Shown piece by piece: positions 5,240 through 62,674 of a stretch of 64,000 nt of DNA. Both the position numbers and the translations under genes were made by a program. Below the pieces are notes generated by a model. It did no database searches and had not been told where the DNA came from. It worked only from the letters and a program-made list of their open reading frames with translations. The DNA comes from Thermomicrobiales bacterium. Lineage in GTDB: Bacteria > Chloroflexota > Chloroflexia > Thermomicrobiales > UBA6265. The stretch lies in assembly GCA_023957015.1 (NCBI GenBank), contig JAMLHR010000010.1:8693-72692 (forward strand). The letters are read 5' to 3'. Position 1 is the stretch's first letter; every line of letters begins with the position of its first letter.

Positions 5240-6805
5240 TCAATACCGCGCGATGCGGGTGTGATACGCCAACGTCATCAGCGCGGTGAACCACAGATAG
5301 GCCCACACCCAGGTTGGGGTCGCCTTCACGCTCCACTGGCGCTCGCCGCGAAACTCCCAGGCGATCACCTGCGCCACAGCCGGCACCGGCCACACCCAAT
5401 ACCACGGGTGGCTATTCACCGGCAGGAAACTGATCACCAGCAGGATACCCATCCAGGCGTAGAGCACGTGGCCACTCCACCAAGGGATCCGCTCGGGAAG
5501 CAAATCATCCTCACCCGGATCGACGGAGACATGTGTGTCATTCCAGATCTTGTAGCCCAGCCAAACAACGATCCCAACGAACAGGGCCGAGCTGGTGAAC
5601 TGCAGGATATCCCGACTGATCTCGCTGAATCGCCAGCTCACATGGCCACCGAAAACCGAGCGAATGATGCCATTGATCGTACGCCAGACAGGATTGGTGT
5701 ACAGCCTGCTCGGTTCCCGAATCATCTCCTCCAACGTGTGCGTGCCATCCCAGTACGGCAGGAAACTGAGGACGATCACCGAGAGGATCGCGATACCATC
5801 CAGGATCCAGTTGCCGAAGATTCGCCGAATCCAGTTTGGTTTCTTACGATCGACTAAACGGAGAATACCGAGCACCCCTAGCAACGGTAGCGTCACGAAC
5901 TTCACCATCACACTGAAGGCGACCAGGATGATACCGGATCGCAGTGCCGAGAGGCCGCCCCAGATCACCAGCATCAATCCCAGAGTCGCGATGAGAACGG
6001 TGTGAGGATCATTGTGTACCTGGCCGGTGCTCTCCAGGATCATATTCGGTTGCCAAGCGACCAGCGCCGCACACGCCAGTGCCAGCTTCTGATTGCCGCC
6101 GGAGAGCCGCCTGGCGAAGAAGAAGATCGCCACAGCCACACCCAGTGCTGCCAAACCGGAGAACGCCTTCTGCCACAGTGTCGCGATGACGGGATCGTTG
6201 CCGGATATCCACATCAAGGCCGCGTTGTAGTTAACCCATTGCGGTCCGTAGACCGTGCCGATATCAACCCAGAAGATAAACGGGAGCAGCGGACTATTCG
6301 GCAGATCACTCATGAAGTGGACGTAGGGATTCATCCCCTTAACCACGAAATCGCCAACACCCTCGTAGAAGAAGACATCCGAGTTGCTGGGAATCATGAA
6401 GACAAACTGGATCAGATGAGCGCCAACCGGACCGAGTAGCCACAGCCACGGCTTGGGAGAACTCTGACGCATGATGACCACAAACGCACCGATCTGGGCC
6501 ACGAATCCGAGCAGCATACTGGCCCGAAATCCCCAAACGATCAGACCCTTGGGCAGCTCGTAATGAGGAACAATCGGTGCGAGCCAATCCTGCCAGAGGG
6601 CAACGCGCTCAATCGCTCCCCAGTTCTCGACGATGTTCATCGTGCCGTGGATGGAATCCACCGGCATGCCAAGCAGGAAGAAACACATACCAACACTGCT
6701 CAACCAGATGAACAGCGTCAACGGCCAGAAACCGATGTTGCCGAGCTGTTCAGCGATCGCGCCGAACCAGCGAGACCACCTGCCGGTTGTCTCCTCCCCG
6801 CTCAC
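5240..6805 (-). CDS. Polytopic integral membrane protein, putative GT-C type glycosyltransferase (DUF2029/GT87-like)
   Basis: 521 aa with more than 10 predicted TM segments and loops rich in W/P/Y. The family assignment is tentative. Its start overlaps the mutS stop by 4 nt (6802-6805). Confidence 0.6.
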   Translation of the reverse strand: MSGEETTGRWSRWFGAIAEQLGNIGFWPLTLFIWLSSVGMCFFLLGMPVDSIHGTMNIVENWGAIERVALWQDWLAPIVPHYELPKGLIVWGFRASMLLGFVAQIGAFVVIMRQSSPKPWLWLLGPVGAHLIQFVFMIPSNSDVFFYEGVGDFVVKGMNPYVHFMSDLPNSPLLPFIFWVDIGTVYGPQWVNYNAALMWISGNDPVIATLWQKAFSGLAALGVAVAIFFFARRLSGGNQKLALACAALVAWQPNMILESTGQVHNDPHTVLIATLGLMLVIWGGLSALRSGIILVAFSVMVKFVTLPLLGVLGILRLVDRKKPNWIRRIFGNWILDGIAILSVIVLSFLPYWDGTHTLEEMIREPSRLYTNPVWRTINGIIRSVFGGHVSWRFSEISRDILQFTSSALFVGIVVWLGYKIWNDTHVSVDPGEDDLLPERIPWWSGHVLYAWMGILLVISFLPVNSHPWYWVWPVPAVAQVIAWEFRGERQWSVKATPTWVWAYLWFTALMTLAYHTRIARY

Positions 6806-9477: not shown

Positions 9478-9685
9478 GAGGTATCCGGGTCACGGGTTGA
9501 CGCCATTTCATCAGAAAGAAGGATACCGTACCGCTTGGGACAGATGGGCCAAGTACGGGACATACGAACCATGGCATGCGTGCAAACCTGGTTCGTTTGC
9601 AGCCCCGGTATTCCGATACCGCCCATGCTACTATTACGAATCGTAAGCGAGTACCCGTATTCTCTATTACCAAGGATTCCTTCTC

Positions 9686-12888: not shown

Positions 12889-14589
12889 ATGTCCCCAATC
12901 CCCTCCGATCTCGAGATCGCGCAATCCGCCACCATGCTGCCCATGAACGATGTGGCGGCGCAACTCGGTATCGCCCCGGAGTATCTCCTCCCCTACGGTC
13001 GTAACATCGCCAAGGTGGATCCTGCCGTCGTTGAGACGATGGGCGATCGCGAACCCGGCAAGTACATCGTCGTTACCGCGATCACACCGACACCGCTCGG
13101 CGAGGGCAAGACGACGACCGCCGTTGGTTTAGCCCAGGGTCTGAAGCATGTCGGCAAAACCAGTGTGCTCACGCTCAGGCAGCCGAGCATGGGACCAACC
13201 TTCGGTATTAAAGGCGGAGCCGCCGGTGCTGGCTACAGCCAGGTGCTACCTATGGAGCAGCTCAACCTGCACTTAACCGGCGACTTTCACGCTGTCACCG
13301 CTGCCCACAACCTGCTGGCGGCGATGATCGATAACCACCTCCACCACGGCAATGCGCTCGATCTGGATATCGATGCGATCCAGTGGCGACGCGTGCTTGA
13401 TGTCAATGATCGTTCGCTCCGCGATATCGTTATCGGTCTTGGTGGCAAGGCCGATGGTGTGACACGCCAGACAGGCTTCGATATCACTGCCGCCAGCGAG
13501 GTCATGACGACACTCGCACTCGCGACCAGTCTGGAGGATTTGCGCGAACGGCTGGGACGGATCGTCATCGGTCGCAATCGAAGTGGGAAGTTCGTCACCG
13601 CCGAAGATCTCCAGGCAGCTGGCGCGATGACGGTCATCCTACGCGATGCCATCTGGCCCAACCTGCTTCAGACGACCGAGAACACACCGGTGCTCATTCA
13701 TTGCGGACCGTTCGGGAATATCGCCACCGGCAATAGCAGCATCATCGCCGATCAGGTCGGACTGCGCACCGCCGAGTACGTGATCACCGAGGCGGGTTTC
13801 GGTGCCGATATGGGTGCCGAGCGCTTCTTCAACATCAAGTGCCGCGTCGGGAATGCCCGTCCGGCGGCGGCTGTGCTGGTGGTCACCGTGCGGGCGCTGA
13901 AGGCGCACAGCGGTCGCTTTAAGATCACACCGGGCAAACCGCTTCCACCGGAACTACTGGCCGAGAACGCGGACGATGTCCGCGCCGGTGCCGATAACCT
14001 GCGCAAGCATATTCAGATCGTACAGGGATTCGGTGTGCAACCGGTTGTCGCGATCAATGCCTTCCCCACCGATCACGCCAGCGAGCATGAAGCGATCCGT
14101 GAGATCGCCGAAGCGATGGGTGTGCGCGTGGCCGTCAGCACGCATGTTGTCGATGGCGGTCCCGGTGCGGCTGATCTGGCGCGAGAGGTTATCGCTGCGG
14201 CAGAGGAAGAGACGAACTTCCAGTACACCTATGAGCTGGAGATGTCGCTGAAAGACAAGATCGCCGCGGTCGCGACCAAGGTGTACGGCGCGGCGGATGT
14301 CTCCTACGCGCCGCTGGCGGCAAAGAATCTGAAGGCGTTTGAGGATGCCGGATATGGCAGTCTGCCAGTGGTGATCGCCAAGACGCACCTCAGTGTCAGC
14401 AGCGATCCGAAGCTGAAGGGTGCGCCAACTGGCTGGACGCTGCCAGTGCGCGAGGTGCGACTTGCTGCGGGTGCAGGCTACGTCTACGCCATCGCGGGCG
14501 ATATGACGACCATGCCAGGGCTGGGTAACTCTCCTGCCGCCGAGCGAATCGATATCACTGAGGATGGCAAGGTGGTGGGTCTTTTTTAG
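12889..14589 (+). CDS. fhs: Formate--tetrahydrofolate ligase
   Basis: 566 aa. PTPLGEGKTTTAVGL P-loop and family-wide conservation throughout. GAAAGG lies upstream. Confidence 0.97.
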   Translation: MSPIPSDLEIAQSATMLPMNDVAAQLGIAPEYLLPYGRNIAKVDPAVVETMGDREPGKYIVVTAITPTPLGEGKTTTAVGLAQGLKHVGKTSVLTLRQPSMGPTFGIKGGAAGAGYSQVLPMEQLNLHLTGDFHAVTAAHNLLAAMIDNHLHHGNALDLDIDAIQWRRVLDVNDRSLRDIVIGLGGKADGVTRQTGFDITAASEVMTTLALATSLEDLRERLGRIVIGRNRSGKFVTAEDLQAAGAMTVILRDAIWPNLLQTTENTPVLIHCGPFGNIATGNSSIIADQVGLRTAEYVITEAGFGADMGAERFFNIKCRVGNARPAAAVLVVTVRALKAHSGRFKITPGKPLPPELLAENADDVRAGADNLRKHIQIVQGFGVQPVVAINAFPTDHASEHEAIREIAEAMGVRVAVSTHVVDGGPGAADLAREVIAAAEEETNFQYTYELEMSLKDKIAAVATKVYGAADVSYAPLAAKNLKAFEDAGYGSLPVVIAKTHLSVSSDPKLKGAPTGWTLPVREVRLAAGAGYVYAIAGDMTTMPGLGNSPAAERIDITEDGKVVGLF

Positions 14590-14604
14590 GGGTAGTAGAT
14601 GTAG

Positions 14605-14674
14605 CCCCGGACCGATCGGTCGCGTTGTAGAGGATAACTGTGAACAACCAATCGCGACCGTGAGTGGTCCGGGG
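14605..14674 (+). repeat. H1 hairpin repeat, copy A (two stems separated by a conserved asymmetric internal loop GATC / GTGAGT)
   Basis: CCCCGGACC-GATC-GGTCGCG-[28 nt]-CGCGACC-GTGAGT-GGTCCGGGG. Related copies lie at 32305-32373 and, inverted, at 32472-32542. Confidence 0.65.
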
Positions 14675-14687
14675 TATGTCCGGTGGC

Positions 14688-14786
14688 GCCAAGATGACCG
14701 GGCTGCCGCACCTCCGGGTGATGGCGGTCAACATGCCCCAACCTGACCGACCATGGGGCGGGAGCCGGGAGGTCGGTCATCTTGGC
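14688..14786 (+). repeat. M2 structured repeat, copy 1
   Basis: Closed by a perfect 13-bp stem GCCAAGATGACCG...CGGTCATCTTGGC. Has internal hairpins and a conserved GGTCAACATG centre. A direct repeat of it lies at 15422-15510. Confidence 0.6.
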
Positions 14787-14808
14787 AGAGGAGTCGATCA
14801 GAAGACCT

Positions 14809-15411
14809 ATGGATGTGACTCCCACTATCTACGACCGCGAGGTCCTGGAGAAACTCTTCAACGGCAGCGCTAAAGGTCGGAGACACGTCCATTTCTTCGC
14901 CGCGATCCCAGATGATCTCATTCCGCACTTGCCCGGATTCTGGTGGGATCAACGTAAACTCTTCGCTCTGGACTTGGAGAAGGAAATACTTTCCACCAGT
15001 GAACTCGACTATCTTCTTGATGTCCCGATCTGGCGAGCAACAGCGCAATCATCCCTCTTTGCTGTGAGAGGGAGAGACATCCTAATGAATCCTAAAAGGT
15101 ACCCCGATCACTGGAGAAGGATTCAGGCTGCTGATATCTCGTATCCCATCATTCTCTACAAGAGAGACGGATACATTCTCCTTCTTGATGGATACCATCG
15201 ACTCCTTAAACCAATATATGAAGGTCACTCTCATATTCATGCTTCATTCATTGCGTATGAGCGTATTGATGGCATTCTCATCACCGAAAGGTTCCTCGGA
15301 GAACTCAATACTGCGTCTCGCGATGATCCGGAGTTCATCGTCCACGCCCGGGAGGTTGCTCGCGATCTCCTCGTGTCAGAAAAGGTAGATCAGTATCCGG
15401 CCTGGACGTAG
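14809..15411 (+). CDS. ParB/sulfiredoxin-fold domain protein (DGYHR motif), otherwise uncharacterised
   Basis: Visibly more AT-rich ORF. PIILYKRDGYILLLDGYHRLLKP (DGYHR at 15187-15201) matches the ParB N-terminal/Srx-fold core motif. The N-terminal ~120 aa is unrecognised. The track starts at TTG 14782; I prefer ATG 14809. Confidence 0.6.
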   Translation: MDVTPTIYDREVLEKLFNGSAKGRRHVHFFAAIPDDLIPHLPGFWWDQRKLFALDLEKEILSTSELDYLLDVPIWRATAQSSLFAVRGRDILMNPKRYPDHWRRIQAADISYPIILYKRDGYILLLDGYHRLLKPIYEGHSHIHASFIAYERIDGILITERFLGELNTASRDDPEFIVHAREVARDLLVSEKVDQYPAWT

Positions 15412-15421
15412 TTGACCCCAC

Positions 15422-15510
15422 GCCAAGATGACCGGGGTGCCAACCCCCTGGGGGTGGGTGGTCAACATGACCGGCATCGGCCGGGGGCGTGGAAGGTCGG
15501 TTACCTTGGC
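15422..15510 (+). repeat. M2 structured repeat, copy 2
   Basis: Same 5' arm GCCAAGATGACCG. The 3' arm CGGTTACCTTGGC gives one G-U and one A-C. The GGTCAACATG centre is conserved, and the internal hairpins differ in sequence but still pair. Confidence 0.6.
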
Positions 15511-15632
15511 TGAGAAGCCATATTGTAGGCTCGGGTCGACCGCCGCTTGCGGCGTAAGTCTTCCCGGGAACCGCCCGCAGGCGGCATGATGCGAATGCGG
15601 CGACGGAACCTGTGTTATGCCCAAACACCATT

Positions 15633-15651
15633 GTCACCCACGAGGGGTGAC
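15633..15651 (-). terminator. Hairpin immediately downstream of the tsaC stop
   Basis: GTCACCC-ACGAG-GGGTGAC lies 1-2 nt after the stop codon (15653-15655, minus strand). No strong U-tract. Confidence 0.4.
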
Positions 15652-15652
15652 G

Positions 15653-16282
15653 CTACCTGCTGGCCGTTCCCCACGCTGACCGGAGCTCATCCGCGCTGAT
15701 CGCACCCTCGCGCAGCACCACAATCTCCCCATCAACCACACGAATGACCGTGCTGGGGTTCTCTTGCGGTGAGAAGCCGCCATCCAATACCAGATCAAGC
15801 TTGCTGCCAAATGAATCCTTGATCTCGGCAGCGGAGAGAGCTGCCGCCTGACCGGAGAGATTGGCACTGGTGGTGGCGACTGCACCACCGAGGCGTTCGG
15901 CGATGGTGAGCGGGATGGAATGGTTCGGAAGACGCACACCGATGGTGTTGTCCGGGGCCTTCACCTCGGCGGGAAGATGATCCGCGGCTGGAAGCACAAC
16001 GGTCAATGCCCCCGGCCAGAATCGCTGCGCGAGATCGATCAAGCGCTCATCGACATCCGGACTGAGATCATCGATCACTTCCGCTCGCGCGATCAGGATC
16101 GGCAGCGGCTTATCTGGCTGCCGACCCTTGAGATCGTAGATACGCTGTAGCGCCGCCGGATGCTCCAGGCTGGCACCGATGCCGTAGACGGTATCGGTGG
16201 GGAACGCGACTATGCCACCGCGACTCATGGTGATGATCGCCTCTTCGAGCGCGCGTCCTTCCTCAAGACTCAGATACGACAT
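15653..16282 (-). CDS. tsaC: L-threonylcarbamoyladenylate synthase (YrdC/Sua5 domain)
   Basis: GGIVAFPTDTVYGIGA, KGRQPDKPLPILI and TSANLSG motifs. The preferred start is MSYLSLEE at 16282 (track ORF reaches 16312). Overlaps the uvrC 3' end by 20 nt. Confidence 0.85.
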   Translation of the reverse strand: MSYLSLEEGRALEEAIITMSRGGIVAFPTDTVYGIGASLEHPAALQRIYDLKGRQPDKPLPILIARAEVIDDLSPDVDERLIDLAQRFWPGALTVVLPAADHLPAEVKAPDNTIGVRLPNHSIPLTIAERLGGAVATTSANLSGQAAALSAAEIKDSFGSKLDLVLDGGFSPQENPSTVIRVVDGEIVVLREGAISADELRSAWGTASR

Positions 16283-19985: not shown

Positions 19986-20139
19986 GCACCCCTATTGCTT
20001 CGTTTTCATAGTCGCAGCCAAGACTCCGGGGACCAGGGTCCGCGCTGAAGACGGCAGCTTGCCTCCCTCCGCTATTCGTTCTGCACACTCGGCCACCTTC
20101 GGTGCCCCGGATCCGCAGGTGAGTCACGGCAGTTGTGGC

Positions 20140-20441: not shown

Positions 20442-20548
20442 CCCGGGGTTAAGGGCGGCAAGCTGCCGCCTTCGGCACCCGGAGGCCATATCGGTTCTCT
20501 CCACCCCCGGACTAAGGGCAGCAAGCTGCCGCCTTCGGCATCCGGGGG
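20442..20548 (+). repeat. Tandem GC-hairpin repeat, family R3 (2 units, ~63-bp period)
   Basis: CCCGGGGTTAAGGGCGGCAAGCTGCCGCCTTCGGCACCCGGAGG and CCCCGGACTAAGGGCAGCAAGCTGCCGCCTTCGGCATCCGGGGG. Each unit folds around GCGGCA-AGC-TGCCGC. An inverted partial copy lies at 20047-20068. Confidence 0.6.
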
Positions 20549-20603
20549 CTACGTCTGGACGCTTGCAAACCCGCATATGAAATGCGGGCCTACACCTTGG
20601 TCG

Positions 20604-32232: not shown

Positions 32233-32304
32233 TCGGTGTAGCGCCGAGCTGCGAGTGCCATTCGTACCGAGCTAATCACCGAAGTGATCGAAGCCGACTC
32301 ATAG

Positions 32305-32373
32305 ACCCGGACCGATCAAGCGCGAACCATCGATATTCCTGCGGAAGACGTCGCGCTTGTGAGTGGTCCGGGT
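32305..32373 (+). repeat. H1 hairpin repeat, copy B
   Basis: ACCCGGACC-GATC-AAGCGCG-[27 nt]-CGCGCTT-GTGAGT-GGTCCGGGT. The inner stem carries three compensatory changes relative to copy A. Confidence 0.65.
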
Positions 32374-32471
32374 TCAGCTTCTCACCTCCACCCTTCCAAT
32401 CCTCTGGATACATGTATGCAACCACCATTGCTGGATGCCAGAGGTGAATTGGGACTCCGTTGGCATCGTGA

Positions 32472-32542
32472 ACCCGGACAACTCACGGTCGCGGTTGGTT
32501 GGAGGGCGACCACTCTCGGAACCGCGACCGATCGGTCCGGGT
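32472..32542 (-). repeat. H1 hairpin repeat, copy C (inverted orientation)
   Basis: The reverse complement reads ACCCGGACC-GATC-GGTCGCGG-...-CCGCGACC-GTGAGT-TGTCCGGGT. Confidence 0.65.
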
Positions 32543-32609
32543 CTACTCCTCCGGGACAACCTCACGGAATCTCTCGGTACAGATGCCATGTCAGCCCGGC
32601 GACACAGCC

Positions 32610-40059: not shown

Positions 40060-40140
40060 TGTGTCTCCAGTGAATCCGCGTGTCACCAGGATAAGGGCTC
40101 TACCGCCTTCGGCACGCGGAGGCGACGCTGCTACCTCAGG

Positions 40141-44351: not shown

Positions 44352-44376
44352 CTTCTTCACAATGATGTGAATGCGA

Positions 44377-44408
44377 AAGGAACCCGGTCCTGATGGGCCG
44401 GGTTCCTT
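44377..44408. terminator. Bidirectional hairpin between the convergent doxX-like and HTH genes
   Basis: AAGGAACCCGG-[10 nt]-CCGGGTTCCTT is an 11-bp perfect stem. Confidence 0.6.
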
Positions 44409-44446
44409 CGTGCGTCATGCAAAGAGATGACTCTCATTGCATCGGA

Positions 44447-46360: not shown

Positions 46361-47508
46361 ATGCGCATCATGTGGACGATTGGGTACGACGATCTGGAAA
46401 GCATTGCTGTGGGCGCTGGCATCCTCGGCACCGGCGGTGGCGGCAATCCGTATATCGGCAAGCTGATGACGCGGCGTTGCCTCGACGATGGCGCGCGCAT
46501 TCAGGTCGTTCAACCCGATGATGTGCCCGACGAGGCGACGTGTGCCTCTGTCGGCGGTATGGGCGCACCAACGGTGAGTATCGAGAAGATTCAGCGCGGA
46601 GATGAGCCACTGGTCGCGTTGCGGGCGCTGGAGCAGTTCACCGGCAAGAAGGTGGGCTACCTGGTGCCGTGGGAGATCGGCGGCACCAACAGCATGCGAC
46701 CGCTGGTCCAGGCCGCGAAGAGCGGTTTGCCGGTGGTGGATGCCGATGCGATGGGTCGCGCCTTCCCGGAACTGCAGATGTGCACCTACTCGATCTACGG
46801 GGTGCCGGGTGCACCGGCGGCGATTAGTGATGTCAGGGGTGATGTCGCGCTCTTCCCGAACATATCCACCGACCAGTTGCTCGAACGCTATGCTCGTGCG
46901 GTGACAATCGAGATGGGCGGGAGCGCCGGCATCGCCAGTCCGCTGATGAGCGGTGCGGATATGAAGCGCACCGTGATTCCCGGCACCCTCACCTTCGCTC
47001 GCGATCTCGGCGCGGCCGTGCGCCAGGCACGAGAGACATTGGCGGATCCGGTGCAGGCTGTGTTGGACGTTTGCAATGGCCAATCACTGTTCCGGGGGCA
47101 AGATCGTCTCCGTCGAACGCCGTGTCGCCAAGGGATTCTCCCGCGGTAGAGGTGATTATCGATGGGCTGGACGATAACCGTGGCGATACCCTGCACATCG
47201 ACTTCCAAAACGAGAATCTGATCGCTCGTCGCGGCGAGGAAGTACTGGCCTCCGTACCTGATCTCATCTGCATCGTGGACTCTGTTACCGCGGAGCCGAT
47301 CGCAACCGAGGTACTGCGGTACGGACTCACCCGGGTAACAGTACTCGGCATTCCGGCACCCAGACTGCTGAAGACGCCGGAAGCATTGGCGGTGGTAGGT
47401 CCGGGTGCGTTTGGCTATGACGTGCCGTTTGTGCCTCTGGCCGGCGTGTATGGGGTGAGAACTAACCCATCCGGTACCGACCTTGTTCGTGGACTAGCCC
47501 CTATCTGA
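46361..47508 (+). pseudogene. DUF917 (PF06032-like) protein gene interrupted by two +1 frame changes
   Basis: Frame A reads ...GILGTGGGGNPYIG...NGQSLFRG up to ~47098. The family-typical KIVSVERRVAKGFSRG is in frame A+1 (47097-47148). VIIDGLDDNRGDTLHIDFQNENLIAR...PDLICIVD continues in frame A+2 (track ORF 47071-47508). Confidence 0.7.
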
Positions 47509-47518
47509 TAGGTCACGG

Positions 47519-47540
47519 TAGAGGCCTGCTACAGCCTCTA
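47519..47540 (+). terminator. Hairpin after the DUF917 gene
   Basis: TAGAGGC-CTGCTACA-GCCTCTA is a 7-bp stem located 11 nt after the stop. Confidence 0.4.
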
Positions 47541-47632
47541 TCGCAACGACACCCCTTTAAATGATCCGTACGCATGTCGAGGGGGTATCTCATTGTGTCG
47601 AGTCTGCGGAGATGCCTACTTGGGAATATCAA

Positions 47633-47905
47633 CTAACGTGATCTCAGTGTCTTCCCAAATGCATGCGCTGCTTTCACCACCGTACTCAGTTTCACATCAT
47701 CGACATCTCGATTGATCAGGCGATCTACCTGGGACCTGCTGGTACCCATCTGACTCGCCAACTGAGTTTTACTCATCTCCTGACGCTCCATCTCTTCCAT
47801 CATCCAGTTCAAGACGTCAGTAAGTGCCTGAGTTTTGACTTCCTCATACGCACCCTCTGCAATCAGGAAATCATCAAAGGATTCTCCAAGGTGCTTGTTA
47901 CTCAT
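47633..47905 (-). CDS. XRE-family HTH antitoxin-like protein (HigA-like)
   Basis: 90 aa, intact. MSKTQLASQMGTSRSQVDRLIN is an XRE HTH. Its start overlaps the end of the decayed toxin reading frames. Confidence 0.75.
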   Translation of the reverse strand: MSNKHLGESFDDFLIAEGAYEEVKTQALTDVLNWMMEEMERQEMSKTQLASQMGTSRSQVDRLINRDVDDVKLSTVVKAAHAFGKTLRSR

Positions 47906-48300
47906 TCTCGCGTGCCTCCAAAAGCTGTTTTCTCCTTCGAGCAGCTACTGCCAGTTCGGATTTGGGGGTTTCTGCGTCTTCTTCGACGCATGAAGCAAAA
48001 TGGCCTCGCCGTTATTGTAGGGGTGAACAGAATTCCGACAATCCTGTGTGTCGTCAGATTTACGAATCTCCCAGATCTGGTTCTCCGAAACCGACATACC
48101 GGCATACCTATCAGCCAACCATACTCAACTCTTGCGATCGCGATGCCTACAACTTTCCGATCGTCCTCGAAAGTTCCAGCAGAAAAATCCGAACGGGACT
48201 GCCGTTATCAACCCGAAAAGATCGCGCCGGCAAGGTCTTTAGCTCCGACAACTGAACCTCCAGGTACAAGGCAAGTGTACCATGCATGGTACGCGTCAAT
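47902..48300 (-). pseudogene. Decayed Gp49/HigB-like (RelE/ParE superfamily) toxin gene, multiple frameshifts and stops
   Basis: Family-like pieces are scattered over three minus-strand frames: LSELKTLPARS...VRIFLLELSRTIGKL*, QIWEIRKSD, HRIVGILF, NNGEAILLHASKKTQK, TPKSELAVAARRRKQLLEARENE*. The last junction is consistent with a 1-nt loss in CAGAAA(A)CCCCC. Confidence 0.5.
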
Positions 48301-48457
48301 ATCTTCCTCAAACTATGTTGTATGCGGGTGTACCTATATGTGTTGATGATCACGGTATCTGGCATCAGAAAGCGTCGGAGTCGTATCAGGACGAAACAGC
48401 AAATCGTACCCAGAGCCATCACTCTGAGAACTACTGATTCTATAGGGACGCCGTGGG

Positions 48458-48533
48458 TGACCCCCCCGGGACTCGAACCCGGAACCCAATGGATTAAAAG
48501 AGATCCACTGCTCTGCCATTGAGCTAGAGGGTC
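48458..48533 (-). tRNA. tRNA-Lys(UUU)-like gene with a 3-nt insertion in the anticodon loop (possible pseudo-tRNA)
   Basis: Hand fold: acceptor GACCCTC/GGGGGTC, D arm GCTC-AATGGCA-GAGC, anticodon stem GTGGA/TCCAT, T arm CCGGG-TTCGAGT-CCCGG. The loop reads TCT+CTTTTAA (10 nt) where E. coli tRNA-Lys has CTTTTAA. The variable region is 6 nt. The 3' flank is CCC, not CCA. Confidence 0.6.
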
Positions 48534-50988: not shown

Positions 50989-51016
50989 CTCCATCGCCCG
51001 AGACCTGATAGATAGC

Positions 51017-51051
51017 AAAGAGCCGATCCGCGAGAGACGGATCGGCTCTTT
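51017..51051. terminator. Strong bidirectional intrinsic terminator
   Basis: AAAGAGCCGATCCG-CGAGAGA-CGGATCGGCTCTTT is a 14-bp perfect stem flanked by A/T runs. It lies between the convergent cupin gene and aroE. Confidence 0.75.
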
Positions 51052-51056
51052 CGTTT

Positions 51057-55441: not shown

Positions 55442-55565
55442 TGAGGAAGAGGTAGTGGCGACCCTCGTGGTCACCCCGAGAGAAATCTCGCCATTCAGGG
55501 CTTCACACGAGCGACCTTGCTGAGGGTGTGTTGCTGGATGTTTCTTGTCACCACCAATGTGCCAT

Positions 55566-55755: not shown

Positions 55756-55920
55756 ATGCCGCTTTGGCCCTTCTCGAAGAAATCACTTCAACCCTTCGGG
55801 ATCACCAAACTACACGATGCAACCACGTTCTCGGTGCTAATCCGTATAGCAGCACGCTTTGCTGCTAGTGCAATGCACAACCACCGCGCCCGATCGGCCC
55901 GGGACTACAAGAATCACACC

Positions 55921-56700
55921 CTACCACTCAGTGCTGCCGACGTAGACAACGGCGCCATGCTCCAGATCATTGCGACCGGCGGCCAGGACGATGCTGGCAG
56001 CGAAGTCTTCGGTGGTCGGCAACCAGCCCGCTTCCTCACGGCGCTGGTCGATGACACCAGGTGTCATCCGATCGAGGAGCTTCGGCGTGATCGTACCGTC
56101 GATGAGATCGCCGGAAACGATCGCGAAGCGGATTCCGCGCGCGGCCAAATCCGGCATCATCGCCCGCAGGGACTCCTCGCCAGCCTTCTTTCCGGCGGCA
56201 ACGGTCTCGTAGCTCTCCATCACCGGCTTCTCACCGTAATAGTGGGCCAGGTGGCTGGTCACGAAAACGAGCACCGACCCAGCGTGCATCAGCGGCAACG
56301 CCGCCTTCACCAGTCCGACCTGGGCATCGCGATTCAGTATCATCGAGTAATCCTCGGGGACATCCTTCTCCAGACCTCCCGATGCGTTGAGGATCAGTAC
56401 ATCGAGCCTGCCATGCGCCGTCTCGATATCGGCAACCATCGCAGCCACTTCCTCGGCGTTGGTGAGATCAGCCTTAACCAGTGTCGCGGTTCGCCCGTGG
56501 GCTCGGACGGAATCGGCGACGGCCTGGGCGCGCCTCTCCTTGCTGCGGTAGTTGATCACCACGTCGGCACCAGCGACGGCGGCGAAATCGGCAGCGGCGG
56601 CACCGACACCACGCGAGGCACCAGTAATCAGGACAACCTGATCGGTCAGATCGACATCGGGATTTGCCAACGTCTGATCGATGTGCAGTTCGTTGATCAC
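55921..56700 (-). CDS. SDR family oxidoreductase
   Basis: GTG 56700 follows AGGGAG. VVLITGASRGVG cofactor motif and LNASGG. The track ORF extension to 56835 overlaps the divergent GNAT start region. Confidence 0.85.
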   Translation of the reverse strand: MINELHIDQTLANPDVDLTDQVVLITGASRGVGAAAADFAAVAGADVVINYRSKERRAQAVADSVRAHGRTATLVKADLTNAEEVAAMVADIETAHGRLDVLILNASGGLEKDVPEDYSMILNRDAQVGLVKAALPLMHAGSVLVFVTSHLAHYYGEKPVMESYETVAAGKKAGEESLRAMMPDLAARGIRFAIVSGDLIDGTITPKLLDRMTPGVIDQRREEAGWLPTTEDFAASIVLAAGRNDLEHGAVVYVGSTEW

Positions 56701-60674: not shown

Positions 60675-61310
60675 TTATTCGGTTACTTCGCCCATGAAAT
60701 CCACTTCTCCGGACTTCATGTCATACATTCCACCGATCACCTTCGTAGCTCCCGCCTCGATTGCGGCAGCGATCATTGGCGAGAGGCTACCGATACGATC
60801 GACCTGGCGCATGACATTAATCCGGGAGGTGGTATCAATCATGTCCTCCGGCTGGCGTTCACGGGCTCGCAGAACACTCGGCTCGAGCGCGTCGATCAGG
60901 ACGTGAAGTCGGCCAGGGAGGTGCACTTCCTGCTCAACCACCTGAACAGCGGCGGTGACAGCGCCGCAGTTGGTGTGCCCCAGCACCATGATCAGGGGCA
61001 CACCCAATGCATCAACCGCATACTCCAGGCTCGCCAGGCCATACTCACTGAAAACGTTTCCGGCCACGCGGACCATGAACAGATCGCCAGGGAGCTGATC
61101 GAAAAGACGCTCGGCACCGACACGCGCATCGGCGCAGGCGAGGATCGCCGCTACCGGAACGTGCTCCTCCACCAACGAGACGTGGGCAGCACCGTGATCC
61201 ACCCTCTCCGTGTTGGTAACGTAACGACGATTACCATCCTTCAGCATCTGGATTGCCAGATCCGGTGTGACTTCGCCCTGATTTCGCTGTGGATGTCGAT
61301 GTGGAGACAT
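60675..61310 (-). CDS. Beta-class carbonic anhydrase
   Basis: LACADARV, FMVRVAGN and LGHTNCGAV carry the zinc ligand motifs. Confidence 0.9.
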   Translation of the reverse strand: MSPHRHPQRNQGEVTPDLAIQMLKDGNRRYVTNTERVDHGAAHVSLVEEHVPVAAILACADARVGAERLFDQLPGDLFMVRVAGNVFSEYGLASLEYAVDALGVPLIMVLGHTNCGAVTAAVQVVEQEVHLPGRLHVLIDALEPSVLRARERQPEDMIDTTSRINVMRQVDRIGSLSPMIAAAIEAGATKVIGGMYDMKSGEVDFMGEVTE

Positions 61311-61612
61311 GTGGTGTTCCTCACCATGGGTTGACCAATGACCATATCACCGATTTTACGTCACCACTCGTTCGGCCTGCGACTTGTGAACATGAGGCGA
61401 AATCGGAAAGTCACCGCAAAAGGTGTTTGAATTTGAGATATTCCTGCTATACTAGGCCAACCGAGACGTTTCCCATAGGTGGCTCTCGAATGTGTGCGAA
61501 CGCATCTGTTCGTGCGCGTTTGCGTGCAGTCTGGATCAGGACGCGGACCGGGAGGAGTTTTTCCAGAGTGGAGTCCGCCGATAGTCGGCGGGCAAGAGAG
61601 GTTCAGGCGAAA

Positions 61613-62002
61613 ATGAGCGATCGTACGCTTACCTGTCGCGATTGCGGCAATGAGTTCGTGTTCACGGCTGGTGAGCAGGATTTTTACACGTCCCGTGGTT
61701 TCTCGGAACCACAGCGCTGCCCAACCTGCCGTCAGGCACGTAAGGCTCAGCGCAACAACAGTGGCGACAGCTACGGCGGAGGTTACTCCAGCGGTGGCGA
61801 TAGCTACGGTGGTGGTTACTCCAGCCGCGGTGGTGGTTACGGCGGCAACAGTGGTGGTGGCCAGCGCACACTCTATCCGGCAACCTGCAGCGAATGTGGC
61901 AAGGAGACGGAAGTTCCCTTCAACCCGAGCCCAGGCAAGCCGGTCTACTGTCGCGAGTGCTTCCAGAATCAGCGAAACTCGTCGCCACGTTACAACTACT
62001 AG
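61613..62002 (+). CDS. Double zinc-ribbon protein (zf-trcl-like) with an internal Gly/Tyr/Ser-rich repeat linker
   Basis: MSDRTLTCRDCGNEFVFTAGEQDFYTSRGFSEPQRCPTCR, then GDSYGGGYSSGGDSYGGGYSSRGGGYGG, then CSECGKETEVPFNPSPGKPVYCRECF. ATG 61613 follows GAGAGG. The track ORF from 61289 is an artefactual N-terminal extension. Confidence 0.75.
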   Translation: MSDRTLTCRDCGNEFVFTAGEQDFYTSRGFSEPQRCPTCRQARKAQRNNSGDSYGGGYSSGGDSYGGGYSSRGGGYGGNSGGGQRTLYPATCSECGKETEVPFNPSPGKPVYCRECFQNQRNSSPRYNY

Positions 62003-62038
62003 TCTGTAACGTTCGACAGCCAAACAGAAACTGGTACT

Positions 62039-62079
62039 ATCGGGGAGGAATTCAGTATTCCTCCCCGATTTGGGTTTTC
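62039..62079 (+). terminator. Rho-independent terminator after the zinc-ribbon gene
   Basis: ATCGGGGAGGAAT-TCAGT-ATTCCTCCCCGAT is a 13-bp stem followed by TTGGGTTTT. Confidence 0.75.
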
Positions 62080-62092
62080 GTGAGACGACGCC

Positions 62093-62674
62093 ATGTCCGT
62101 CAACAATCCAACAGCCGGAGCACTCGTACGAGCTGGTCAGCTGGTCTCGCTGCGCAGACACATAGCCCAGGATGAAGCAGCCTTCGTTCGCTGGTATACG
62201 GATGCCGATATCGCCTACGTGTTGCGACACGATCTCCGACCGTTGACTCCATATCAGGCACAGGGTTATTTCAGCACGATTGTGCTACCGAACTCGGCCC
62301 ACGGCACCGCCTGGGCGATCCATCACAACGAGACGAACGCTCTCATTGGCACCACCGCGATCACCGAGATCGATGAACGCGGCGGAGAATGCCTCTTCCG
62401 TATTGTCATCGGCGAGAAGGAGCTCTGGGGCGGCGGACTCGGCACCGATGCCACTCGATTGGTGGTGGCGGAGGCGTTCGAGCGCTTTGAGCTCAGGGCG
62501 GTGAACCTGGAAGTGTTCGCCCACAATCCCCGCGCCTATCGCAGCTACGAGAAGGTCGGATTTCAGGAGCGCGGTCGCTCCGAGGAATGGGCCCGGAACG
62601 TGCGTCTGGATGTGATCGCGATGCGTCTCCCACGCGAGGCGTGGGACGGGACCTATCGTACAATCGCACACTGA
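62093..62674 (+). CDS. GNAT family N-acetyltransferase (RimJ/RimL-like)
   Basis: 193 aa. LVSLRRHIAQDEAAFVRWY, WGGGLGTDATRLVV and AYRSYEKVGFQE. Confidence 0.8.
   Translation: MSVNNPTAGALVRAGQLVSLRRHIAQDEAAFVRWYTDADIAYVLRHDLRPLTPYQAQGYFSTIVLPNSAHGTAWAIHHNETNALIGTTAITEIDERGGECLFRIVIGEKELWGGGLGTDATRLVVAEAFERFELRAVNLEVFAHNPRAYRSYEKVGFQERGRSEEWARNVRLDVIAMRLPREAWDGTYRTIAH

Follow-up and report, generated by a model that had tools for sequence, protein, structure and literature searches.

A long, two-tiered GTAG-tagged hairpin downstream of genes in an uncultured Thermomicrobiales species is probably a REP-type repeat

Here we describe H1, a hairpin that recurs in a 64,000-nucleotide stretch of DNA (contig JAMLHR010000010.1, positions 8,693 to 72,692 of the forward strand; hereafter the window) from an uncultured Thermomicrobiales species. 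H1 is probably a lineage-specific family of GTAG-tagged repeats of the repetitive extragenic palindromic (REP) type. The description best supported by our data is that of a new REP family, unusually long and two-tiered, and not that of a new kind of element. In H1 the tag, both arms and the asymmetric internal loop have been kept constant, whereas apex, spacer and flanks have drifted; changes in the stems are compensated; and duplication at the DNA level has carried copies to new intergenic positions immediately behind genes.

The sequence examined covers about 79 kb of the window's species, which is less than 3% of its genome, and about 37 kb of a sister genome, GCA_039809955.1, which is 94-96% identical to the window. 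The additional sequence of the same species comes from the conspecific metagenome-assembled genomes (MAGs) GCA_023957095.1, GCA_023957065.1 and GCA_023957185.1. Their DNA is 98.8-99.0% identical to the window, which at about 99% identity represents a separate strain; look-ups for exact matches to its FTHFS and luciferase-like proteins accordingly found no record. A first-pass annotation of the window had described three hairpin copies of about 70 nt, A, B and C, and all three were found where it had placed them and with the anatomy it had given. The count of three has to be extended, however, by a fourth, truncated copy D on the minus strand (55875-55908) that had been overlooked. Likewise the 70-nt hairpin itself was confirmed, but the repeat begins 5 nt earlier, with GTAG. 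The complete unit reads 5'-GTAG-N-(9-bp outer stem)-GATC-(7-bp inner stem)-(~28-nt apex)-(inner stem)-GTGAGT-(outer stem)-N'-3', and the hairpin of copy A has the sequence C CCCGGACC GATC GGTCGCG (28 nt) CGCGACC GTGAGT GGTCCGGG G. The copies and their parts are as follows.

14601-14604, plus strand: GTAG tag of copy A, unpaired, 1 base before the stem and 11 nt past the FTHFS stop codon (14587-14589)
14605-14674, plus strand: hairpin of copy A; -41 kcal/mol, z -5.3; 94.2 bits with the covariance model
14605-14613/14666-14674, plus strand: outer stem of copy A; its other parts are GATC (14614-14617), inner stem (14618-14624/14653-14659), apex (14625-14652) and GTGAGT (14660-14665)
32258-32300, plus strand: leader, about 40 nt 5' of the tag of copy B, homologous to the sequence upstream of copy E and belonging to the duplicated composite unit
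32301-32304, plus strand: tag of copy B, ATAG in the window and GTAG in the sister genome
32305-32373, plus strand: hairpin of copy B with the inner stem AAGCGCG/CGCGCTT; -38.8 kcal/mol, z -5.3; 91.2 bits
32374-32471, no strand: spacer of the B-C dimer, 98 nt, with ends homologous to those of the E-F spacer
32472-32542, minus strand: hairpin of copy C; -42.1 kcal/mol, z -4.7; 92.9 bits
32543-32546, minus strand: GTAG tag of copy C (CTAC on the plus strand), 63 nt past the stop of a luciferase-like monooxygenase gene (32610, minus strand)
55875-55908, minus strand: remnant of copy D, GTAG T CCCGGGCC GATC GGGCGCG GTGGTTGTGC; 16 bits
L043 5180-5264, plus strand, and 5355-5441, minus strand: copies E and F, about 1.1-1.3 kb upstream of the window start and present in all three conspecific MAGs

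Within the window, the 12-mer CCCGGACCGATC and the 14-mer GTGAGTGGTCCGGG have exact or one-mismatch matches solely at A, B and C. A covariance model built from the copies scored these three at 91-94 bits and unrelated places in the window at no more than 13.6 bits; near-matches at 47392 and 52018 were inspected and are not H1 copies. In copy C the 3' outer arm is TGTCCGGG, which leaves a C.T mismatch at the innermost pair of the outer stem, and the inner stem is lengthened to 10-11 bp. The remnant of copy D consists of tag, left arm and the initial 10 nt of the apex, and the copy's right half has been replaced in the window's species by about 430 nt of unrelated, single-copy sequence, of which no second copy occurs in the sequence examined. 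The sister genome (~95% identity) contains orthologues of A, B and C as well as an intact D (L036 11436-11521, minus strand; model R1 scores it at 46.9 bits and model R2 at 75 bits).

The sense strands of A to C fold to -39 to -42 kcal/mol (z = -4.7 to -5.3) and the antisense strands to -36 to -45 kcal/mol (z = -4.4 to -5.4); in either case 0 of 200 shuffles folded as well. For the analysis of covariation, nine sequences were aligned, namely six paralogues and three orthologues. The internal loop GATC / GTGAGT, which had been called conserved from three copies, is unchanged in 9/9 sequences. Two-sided changes were found at 6 of the 16 stem pairs, with 95% of all cells paired. The outermost pair of the stem occurs as A-T, C-G or T-A, an A-T pair of the outer stem has become G-C in copy D, and a stem G-C has become A-T in copy E. 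GGT/ACC of the inner stem is changed to AAG/CTT in B and E and to GGG/CCC in D. The three-base compensation in B had already been pointed out in the first-pass annotation; it is real and is also present in B of the sister genome, although it represents one lineage event, shared with E. Neither the covariation score nor the paired fraction was reached in any of 500 shuffles, and when the partner strand was slid by 1-3 columns as a control, pairing fell to 17-47% and the covariation score stayed below the observed one in every case.

Furthermore, the changes between window and sister genome are distributed unevenly over the element. Tag, arms and loops differ at 2 of 138 positions, whereas 11 of 85 apex positions (Fisher p = 6e-4 against tag, arms and loops) and 59 of 560 third codon positions (p = 2e-4) have changed. 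Between the two genomes, arms and loops therefore change about 9-fold less than apex or third codon positions. Copy A, which is identical in a conspecific MAG (L001), illustrates this pattern: the orthologue of the sister genome (L033) differs from it at 6 of 29 apex columns and nowhere in stems or loops. For the B-C spacer, identity between window and sister genome is only 70%, as compared to 94-97% for the hairpins on either side of it. Taken together, the invariant loops, the covarying stems and the few changes in the arms argue that hairpin, tag and loop are kept by selection or by directed homogenisation. The GATC of the loop is not in itself unusual for this genome, since GATC and CGATCG are overrepresented throughout the window (693 occurrences against 236 expected from base composition and 87 against 20, respectively).

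These data also bear on the simplest explanation for the likeness of the copies, namely that they are functionless leftovers of a few segmental duplications and alike by recent ancestry only. Few copies are known, and B-C and E-F are evident duplicates, as this explanation would have it. However, the apices, spacers and flanks of the paralogues have strongly diverged while arms and loops are identical, the arms of orthologues have changed about 9-fold less than neutral sites, and at least six stem positions have changed on both sides with the pair kept. The constancy of the arms and the paired stem changes thus speak for constraint or directed homogenisation, and we regard mere leftovers as very unlikely. 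The first-pass annotation had likewise held that H1 fits a structure-selected element better than simple duplication. The constraint on arms and loops bears this out, but B-C and E-F are nevertheless DNA duplicates of a unit that spans about 290 bp and takes in spacer and leader.

The tag lies at the same position relative to the stem, as (G/A)TAG, in 6/6 paralogues. GTAG stands one base before the stem in A, C, D, E, F and B of the sister genome, and ATAG takes its place in B of the window. While A and D are singletons, B-C and E-F form head-to-head dimers with the tags pointing outward and with spacers of 98 nt and about 95 nt, respectively; such a dimer is also able to fold with its two units paired to one another. 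The two dimers have in common the leader, both hairpins, the ends of the spacer and subfamily-specific apices. Copy E is of the B type (inner stem AAGCGC) and copy F of the C type, and their apices are related to those of B and C across the whole apex. The leaders of B and E align as CGTACCGA...GAC(T/C)C ahead of GTAG. Because hairpins, spacer ends and the leader of about 40 nt are homologous, B-C and E-F are to be seen as the same composite unit, about 290 bp long, in two copies. Contrary to what had been thought, the apices of different copies are not unrelated: besides the resemblances of B to E and of C to F, the apices of A and C both carry CAACCAA(T/C) beside the inner stem. Inheritance of the apex follows the subfamilies, and it is not free to vary.

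An element about 250-290 bp long whose inverted ends measure about 80 bp, as which B-C and E-F could be taken, recalls a MITE (miniature transposable element with inverted repeats) derived from and moved by an insertion sequence (IS) of the DDE type, or the end of such an IS. An IS630-like element of the DDE_3 group is indeed polymorphic among the conspecific MAGs just outside the window. Yet its ends, AGAGCACTCTTCA..., match H1 over at most 9 nt, and it was rejected as a parent of H1 since these ends are unrelated. No target-site duplication lies beside any copy, A and D stand alone as singletons, and every supposed end is already a complete tagged hairpin. Neither the genes of the window that were scanned with Pfam nor the gene tables of L001, L010, L034, L036 and L043 include a transposase. 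A MITE origin is therefore highly improbable. The IS630-like insertion itself is 1,010 bp long, contains DDE_3 and HTH open reading frames (ORFs), has the inverted ends AGAGCACTCTTCA and the site CTAG (L041 14039-14919 / L039 14039-14392), and lies about 4 kb beyond the window end in two conspecific MAGs and not in the third (L040). As far as the data allow, H1 thus has neither a freely varying loop nor uncompensated stems, and the sole IS nearby has unrelated ends; these were the findings that the first-pass annotation had named as speaking against a structure-selected element.

All six full copies (A, B, C, E, F and D of the sister genome) as well as the D remnant of the window are extragenic, 11-87 nt past a stop codon and sense to the upstream gene, in keeping with the earlier remark that the copies follow the 3' ends of genes. 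The neighbouring genes are convergent or co-directional. In A, D and F the tag starts only 11-14 nt past the stop; for D, GTAG begins 12 nt past the stop of an SDR gene (55921-55923). Copy B lies 68-73 nt past the stop of a TlpA/ResA-like gene (32232), and the E-F dimer is located between converging genes for a phosphoglycerate-dehydrogenase-like (PGDH-like) protein and an MMPL transporter.

A G+C-rich hairpin just past stop codons and between convergent genes could be an unusual factor-independent terminator common to several genes. No copy is followed by a T-run, however, the tails being GTATGTCC, TTCAGCTT, TTCACGAT, AACTACCA, TTCAGCGT and TACACGAT, and the output of a terminator scan included no H1 copy. 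Ordinary terminators composed of a stem and a T-tract do exist elsewhere in the window, e.g. at 51013-51055, 44374-44411, 20561-20597 and 62032-62076. As this explanation would also leave the conserved GTAG and the invariant loop unaccounted for, it has very little to recommend it.

Comparison with relatives shows that H1 copies come and go at such positions. The gap between the DUF2851 and SDR genes measures 18 nt in a relative of 84% identity, 161 nt in the sister genome, where it includes D, and 479 nt in the window; the sister genome has the complete D, and the window's species a truncated one. No H1 follows FTHFS in a relative with 86% FTHFS identity or TlpA in one with 65% TlpA identity. 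Copy A of the sister genome has flanks that are unrelated to those in the window on both sides, about 75 extra nt from the stop and another gene downstream. The homology between the two copies extends from the bases just ahead of GTAG to about 8 nt beyond the stem.

Features of this kind are well described for the GTAG superfamily of REPs (Di Nocera, De Gregorio & Rocco 2013, PMC3733652). Its members carry GTAG, unpaired, at one end of a G+C-rich stem-loop and form sub-families with complementary stem residues. Some families, e.g. in E. coli and Bradyrhizobium, have 'complex loops' of non-complementary bases and an inner paired region, which in Bradyrhizobium GTAG-14 reaches up to 27 bp. GTAG REPs form head-to-head or tail-to-tail dimers at distances of 20-100 bp, some of them with conserved spacers, and lie downstream of ORFs, between convergent or co-directional genes, where the TAG of the tag sometimes is the stop codon. 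The superfamily includes the E. coli REP (GTAG-3), the SMAGs of Stenotrophomonas (GTAG-6 to 9) and GTAG-23 of Thermomicrobium roseum and Roseiflexus. Chloroflexi are thus among its carriers, including with T. roseum a member of the order Thermomicrobiales (all PMC3733652). H1 resembles this superfamily in its tag, its complementary stem variants, its complex loop, its head-to-head dimers and its position after ORFs, and also in the presence of several families in one genome, as is seen around H1. It thereby shows the tag, fold, covariation, location and inverted-pair arrangement expected of REPs. The suggestion of the first-pass annotation that H1 might be a REP-like, structure-selected element is accordingly strengthened by the tag, the covariation, the constraint, the dimers, the extragenic sites and the empty sites in distant relatives.

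The likeness extends to other well-studied systems. Populations of REPINs, which are paired REPs, consist of a master sequence with a cloud of mutants. In the REPINs of Pseudomonas fluorescens two inverted units and their spacer replicate as one (Bertels & Rainey 2011, PMC3116915), and B-C and E-F have likewise been duplicated as a whole; REPINs are inherited vertically, and H1 units are similarly conserved between the sister genomes. Unlike in REPINs, each H1 unit is a complete long hairpin that also occurs singly (A, D), and the spacer of about 100 nt is poorly conserved. The group-2 REPs of E. coli are long, with GTAG ahead of a stem that is interrupted by an irregular zone (Corneloup 2021, PMC8266576), and TnpA-REP of E. 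coli cuts single-stranded REP only when both GTAG and the bulge in the stem are present (PMC8266576). As in H1, tag and stem are thus combined with a conserved interruption (Ton-Hoang 2012; Messing 2012, PMC3479197; PMC8266576). This interruption consists of two mismatches in E. coli, whereas in H1 it is a 4 x 6 nt internal loop that is followed by a stem of 7 bp and an apex of 28 nt. E. coli also has a TnpA-REP gene; none was seen with H1 in the ~79 kb of the species and ~37 kb of the sister genome. The attC sites of integrons share with H1 the imperfect two-stem hairpin, the unpaired centre and a variable terminal structure, and attC is read as folded single-stranded DNA. They have core sites, an integrase and a cassette array, which H1 does not; attC was rejected as an identity since H1 lacks RYYYAAC / GTTRRRY core sites, the scanned genes include no integrase and the copies are dispersed after housekeeping genes.

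By analogy with E. coli, an HUH/Y1 transposase of the RAYT (REP-associated tyrosine transposase, also TnpA-REP) type would copy H1 from its folded single-stranded DNA. This putative enzyme would read the GTAG tag together with the irregular zone of the stem, as TnpA-REP does in E. coli (PMC8266576). The frozen tag and loop, the covarying stems and the drifting apex amount to a clean natural experiment and point directly to the parts that a recognising protein must read.

Several observations weigh against the assignment of H1 to the REPs. Classical REP families usually have more than 100, often hundreds of dispersed copies per genome, and a REPtron consists of a RAYT gene flanked by its repeats. 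For H1 the tally is six full copies (A, B, C, E, F and D of the sister genome) and one remnant at four loci in about 79 kb, and no Y1_Tnp/RAYT gene was found among the genes of the window or at the loci examined in its relatives, a negative that covers less than 3% of the species' genome and about 37 kb of the sister genome and does not speak for absence of the gene. REPs are usually 20-50 nt in size, whereas H1 with its tag measures 75-80 nt, a length that only the long 'complex loop' families approach. Comparison of the three conspecific MAGs revealed no presence/absence difference in H1 and hence no sign of recent mobility, and no target-site signature could be defined at the copies. The sense orientation of 6/6 copies after genes fits a role as RNA at least as well as one as DNA. 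Finally, the family seems to be very narrow, as exact-pattern scans of public collections yielded no further carrier and in these collections H1 is thus confined to two sister lineages. The scans covered 185,579 representative genomes, JGI metagenome contigs and IMG/VR; being exact, their patterns let diverged relatives escape, and the window's species evidently lies outside the genome collection. A strict two-arm pattern had 0 matches in the contigs of the representative genomes. A left-arm pattern had 17 matches in the genome contigs, close to a rough chance estimate, none with GTGAGT and none above 26 bits. The 7 matches of a 21-base pattern in metagenome contigs all lack the inner stem and are due to chance, and 2 matches in viral contigs (IMG/VR) were rejected by the covariance model. 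One of the chance left-arm matches, in an Actinomycetota MAG (CAWCNK010000005.1, L017 2171-2237), reads GTAG C CCCGGGCC GATCAG CCGCGCGG...CGCGG T GCCCGGG and resembles a GTAG-tagged two-tier hairpin, but without the GTGAGT loop.

H1 also departs from the GTAG REPs in more specific respects. Hairpins of GTAG REPs are 20-40 nt long and that of H1 70-80 nt. The units of GTAG-23 have only about 24 nt, and the sequence of H1 is unrelated to what is inferable for this family. GTAG-23 is moreover clustered in large blocks in T. roseum, whereas the copies of H1 are dispersed. H1 also has a very low tally of known copies and is confined, as far as known, to two sister lineages. A possible origin of H1 from a small palindrome with an insertion was also considered. 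Removal of GCG...GTGAGTGGTC from copy A leaves a perfect 22-nt palindrome, CCCCGGACCGATCGGTCCGGGG, which recalls the 'target palindromes' of T. roseum; since B, D and E do not fit, the idea was dropped.

As every copy is sense and 11-87 nt past a stop codon, H1 is probably co-transcribed with the gene upstream. It could therefore primarily be a cis-acting structured RNA of the 3' untranslated region, whose loop GAUC / GUGAGU binds a protein or RNase that sets the formation, stability or processing of the mRNA 3' end, with the DNA being spread by ordinary recombination and its copies retained for their function as RNA. We consider this possible, though doubtful. Apart from the orientation of the full copies, it could explain that A(+) and D(-), both singletons, point in opposite directions on one replichore yet are both sense to transcription; the head-to-head dimers are symmetric by construction and hence neutral on the question of RNA or DNA. 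The strong RNA folds and the invariant loops with covarying stems are compatible with it as well. Of the single-sided stem changes, two yield a sense-strand G.U (pair 11-77 in E and pair 28-58 in F), in favour of RNA. Another yields a sense-strand C.A in copy C of the sister genome, however, which leaves G.U ahead by 2 to 1, a difference without significance. The remaining stem variants all form Watson-Crick pairs, which is why both strands fold about equally. At the same time, the unpaired GTAG, the dimers and the duplication of spacer and leader characterise REP DNA and not an RNA motif, a copy D without its 3' half is tolerated in three MAGs, and H1 is missing from relatives with the same genes. 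Manual inspection of the sequence revealed no register in which the internal loop fits a K-turn, bulged-G or loop-E motif. The Rfam comparison proposed in the first-pass annotation gave no family that overlaps H1: at the gathering threshold the 64-kb window contains one tRNA only, and in 32250-32600 nothing was found over B or C even at E <= 10.

The two roles are, by analogy with E. coli, not mutually exclusive, as the REPs of this organism are transposase substrates as DNA and active as RNA, too. The RNA hairpin of H1, with about -40 kcal/mol, may act as a barrier or stabiliser at the 3' end, and the copies within about 15 nt of a stop codon (A, D, F) might alternatively brake the termination of translation. 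For the REPs of E. coli, PMC12306157 cites work according to which as RNA they stabilise the upstream mRNA, or stall ribosomes if located no more than 15 nt from the stop.

A more far-reaching proposal is that H1, far from being a passive REP, is a regulatory hairpin restricted to its lineage, that a dedicated protein docks at its invariant 4 x 6 loop, and that the placement of A, D and F within about 15 nt of the stop couples termination to the fate of the mRNA 3' end. We think this unlikely. The candidate docking protein could be a domesticated, Chloroflexota-specific HUH enzyme, or an RNA-binding factor or RNase. If true, it would imply a two-tier REP architecture with a mode of recognition unlike that of the E. 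coli and Pseudomonas systems.

For H1 as a probable REP family, discovery of the cognate enzyme in MAGs would add a third, two-tier design of REP recognition to the bulge-dependent one and the perfect palindrome. To our knowledge, REPs and RAYTs have been studied almost wholly in Proteobacteria, with examples from Chloroflexota coming from one survey only, and we know of no biochemical data on REP systems for any Chloroflexota. In annotation, H1 and the GTAG-headed hairpins in its neighbourhood should be entered as repeat DNA instead of terminators or novel RNA genes.

The intergenic regions that carry H1 also hold many further repeated hairpins, and several of these are headed by GTAG. Overall, GTAG is among the top 3 tetramers at the foot of stems of at least 7 bp (4.1% as compared to 2.2% overall). 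A second hairpin family of about 100 nt occurs at 14684-14797 and 15420-15517, with the termini GCCAAGATGACCG / CGGTCATCTTGGC and copies that are 70-79% identical. These copies are direct repeats that flank an ORF without Pfam match (14782-15411, 209 aa); in the sister genome FTHFS is followed by an APH-family gene, so that the ORF may represent a cassette that was inserted. A third family of repeats has the core GGCAGCAAGCTGCCGCCTTCGGCA and is found at 20442-20486, 20505-20549 and 40100-40127 and, inverted, at 20044-20068. Two of its units, 63 nt apart, stand in tandem downstream of an OsmC gene, and the unit on the minus strand at 20496-20552, GTAG-C-CCCCGGA...TCCGGGGG, is a GTAG-tagged compound hairpin with a head like that of H1.

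Smaller hairpins of this type are also present. A two-tier GTAG hairpin at 15521-15577 on the plus strand (GTAG G CTCGGG ... CCCGGG) scored 19.3 bits with the H1 model. The hairpin GTAG-C-GTCACCCCTCGTGGGTGAC, at 15630-15656 on the minus strand of the same intergenic region, has as its TAG the stop codon of Sua5, and a related small hairpin is located at 1398-1419 and 55451-55472. About 1.4 kb upstream of the window start, 8 nt past the stop of the PGDH-like gene, L043 5102-5127 reads GTAG A CCCCGG TTTCACA CCGGG. This hairpin combines an H1-like head with a 7-nt loop and may be a short form of the H1 family.

As to the setting of H1, the window has a G+C content of about 58.5% and a monotonic GC skew. 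Among the housekeeping genes that it carries are those for FTHFS, MutS, UvrC, chorismate synthase, ResB/CcsA/TlpA cytochrome c maturation, F420 biosynthesis, RNase J, MiaA and succinyl-CoA ligase. NCBI MAGs named Thermomicrobiales bacterium encode proteins that are about 100% identical to its FTHFS, and an 8-kb query from the window had no megablast match in phage genomes.

Some further sites in the window vary between the genomes compared. Next to a tRNA gene (48458-48533, minus strand) the window has an island of about 1 kb (47484-48454) with one ORF without Pfam match (47663-48346). In the sister genome the same island comprises 3.4 kb and four ORFs, one of which encodes an NYN-domain protein (L036 940-4378). 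The divergent intergenic region between mutS and an FAD/luciferase-like gene (9529-9663) measures 135 nt in the window, as compared to an unrelated 65 nt in the conspecific MAG L001 and the sister genome. Finally, two tandem units of 33 nt with 85% identity are found at 61756-61821, within ORFs on both strands (61289-62002, plus; 61361-62230, minus), and a zf_Tbcl protein is annotated near this region in a conspecific MAG.

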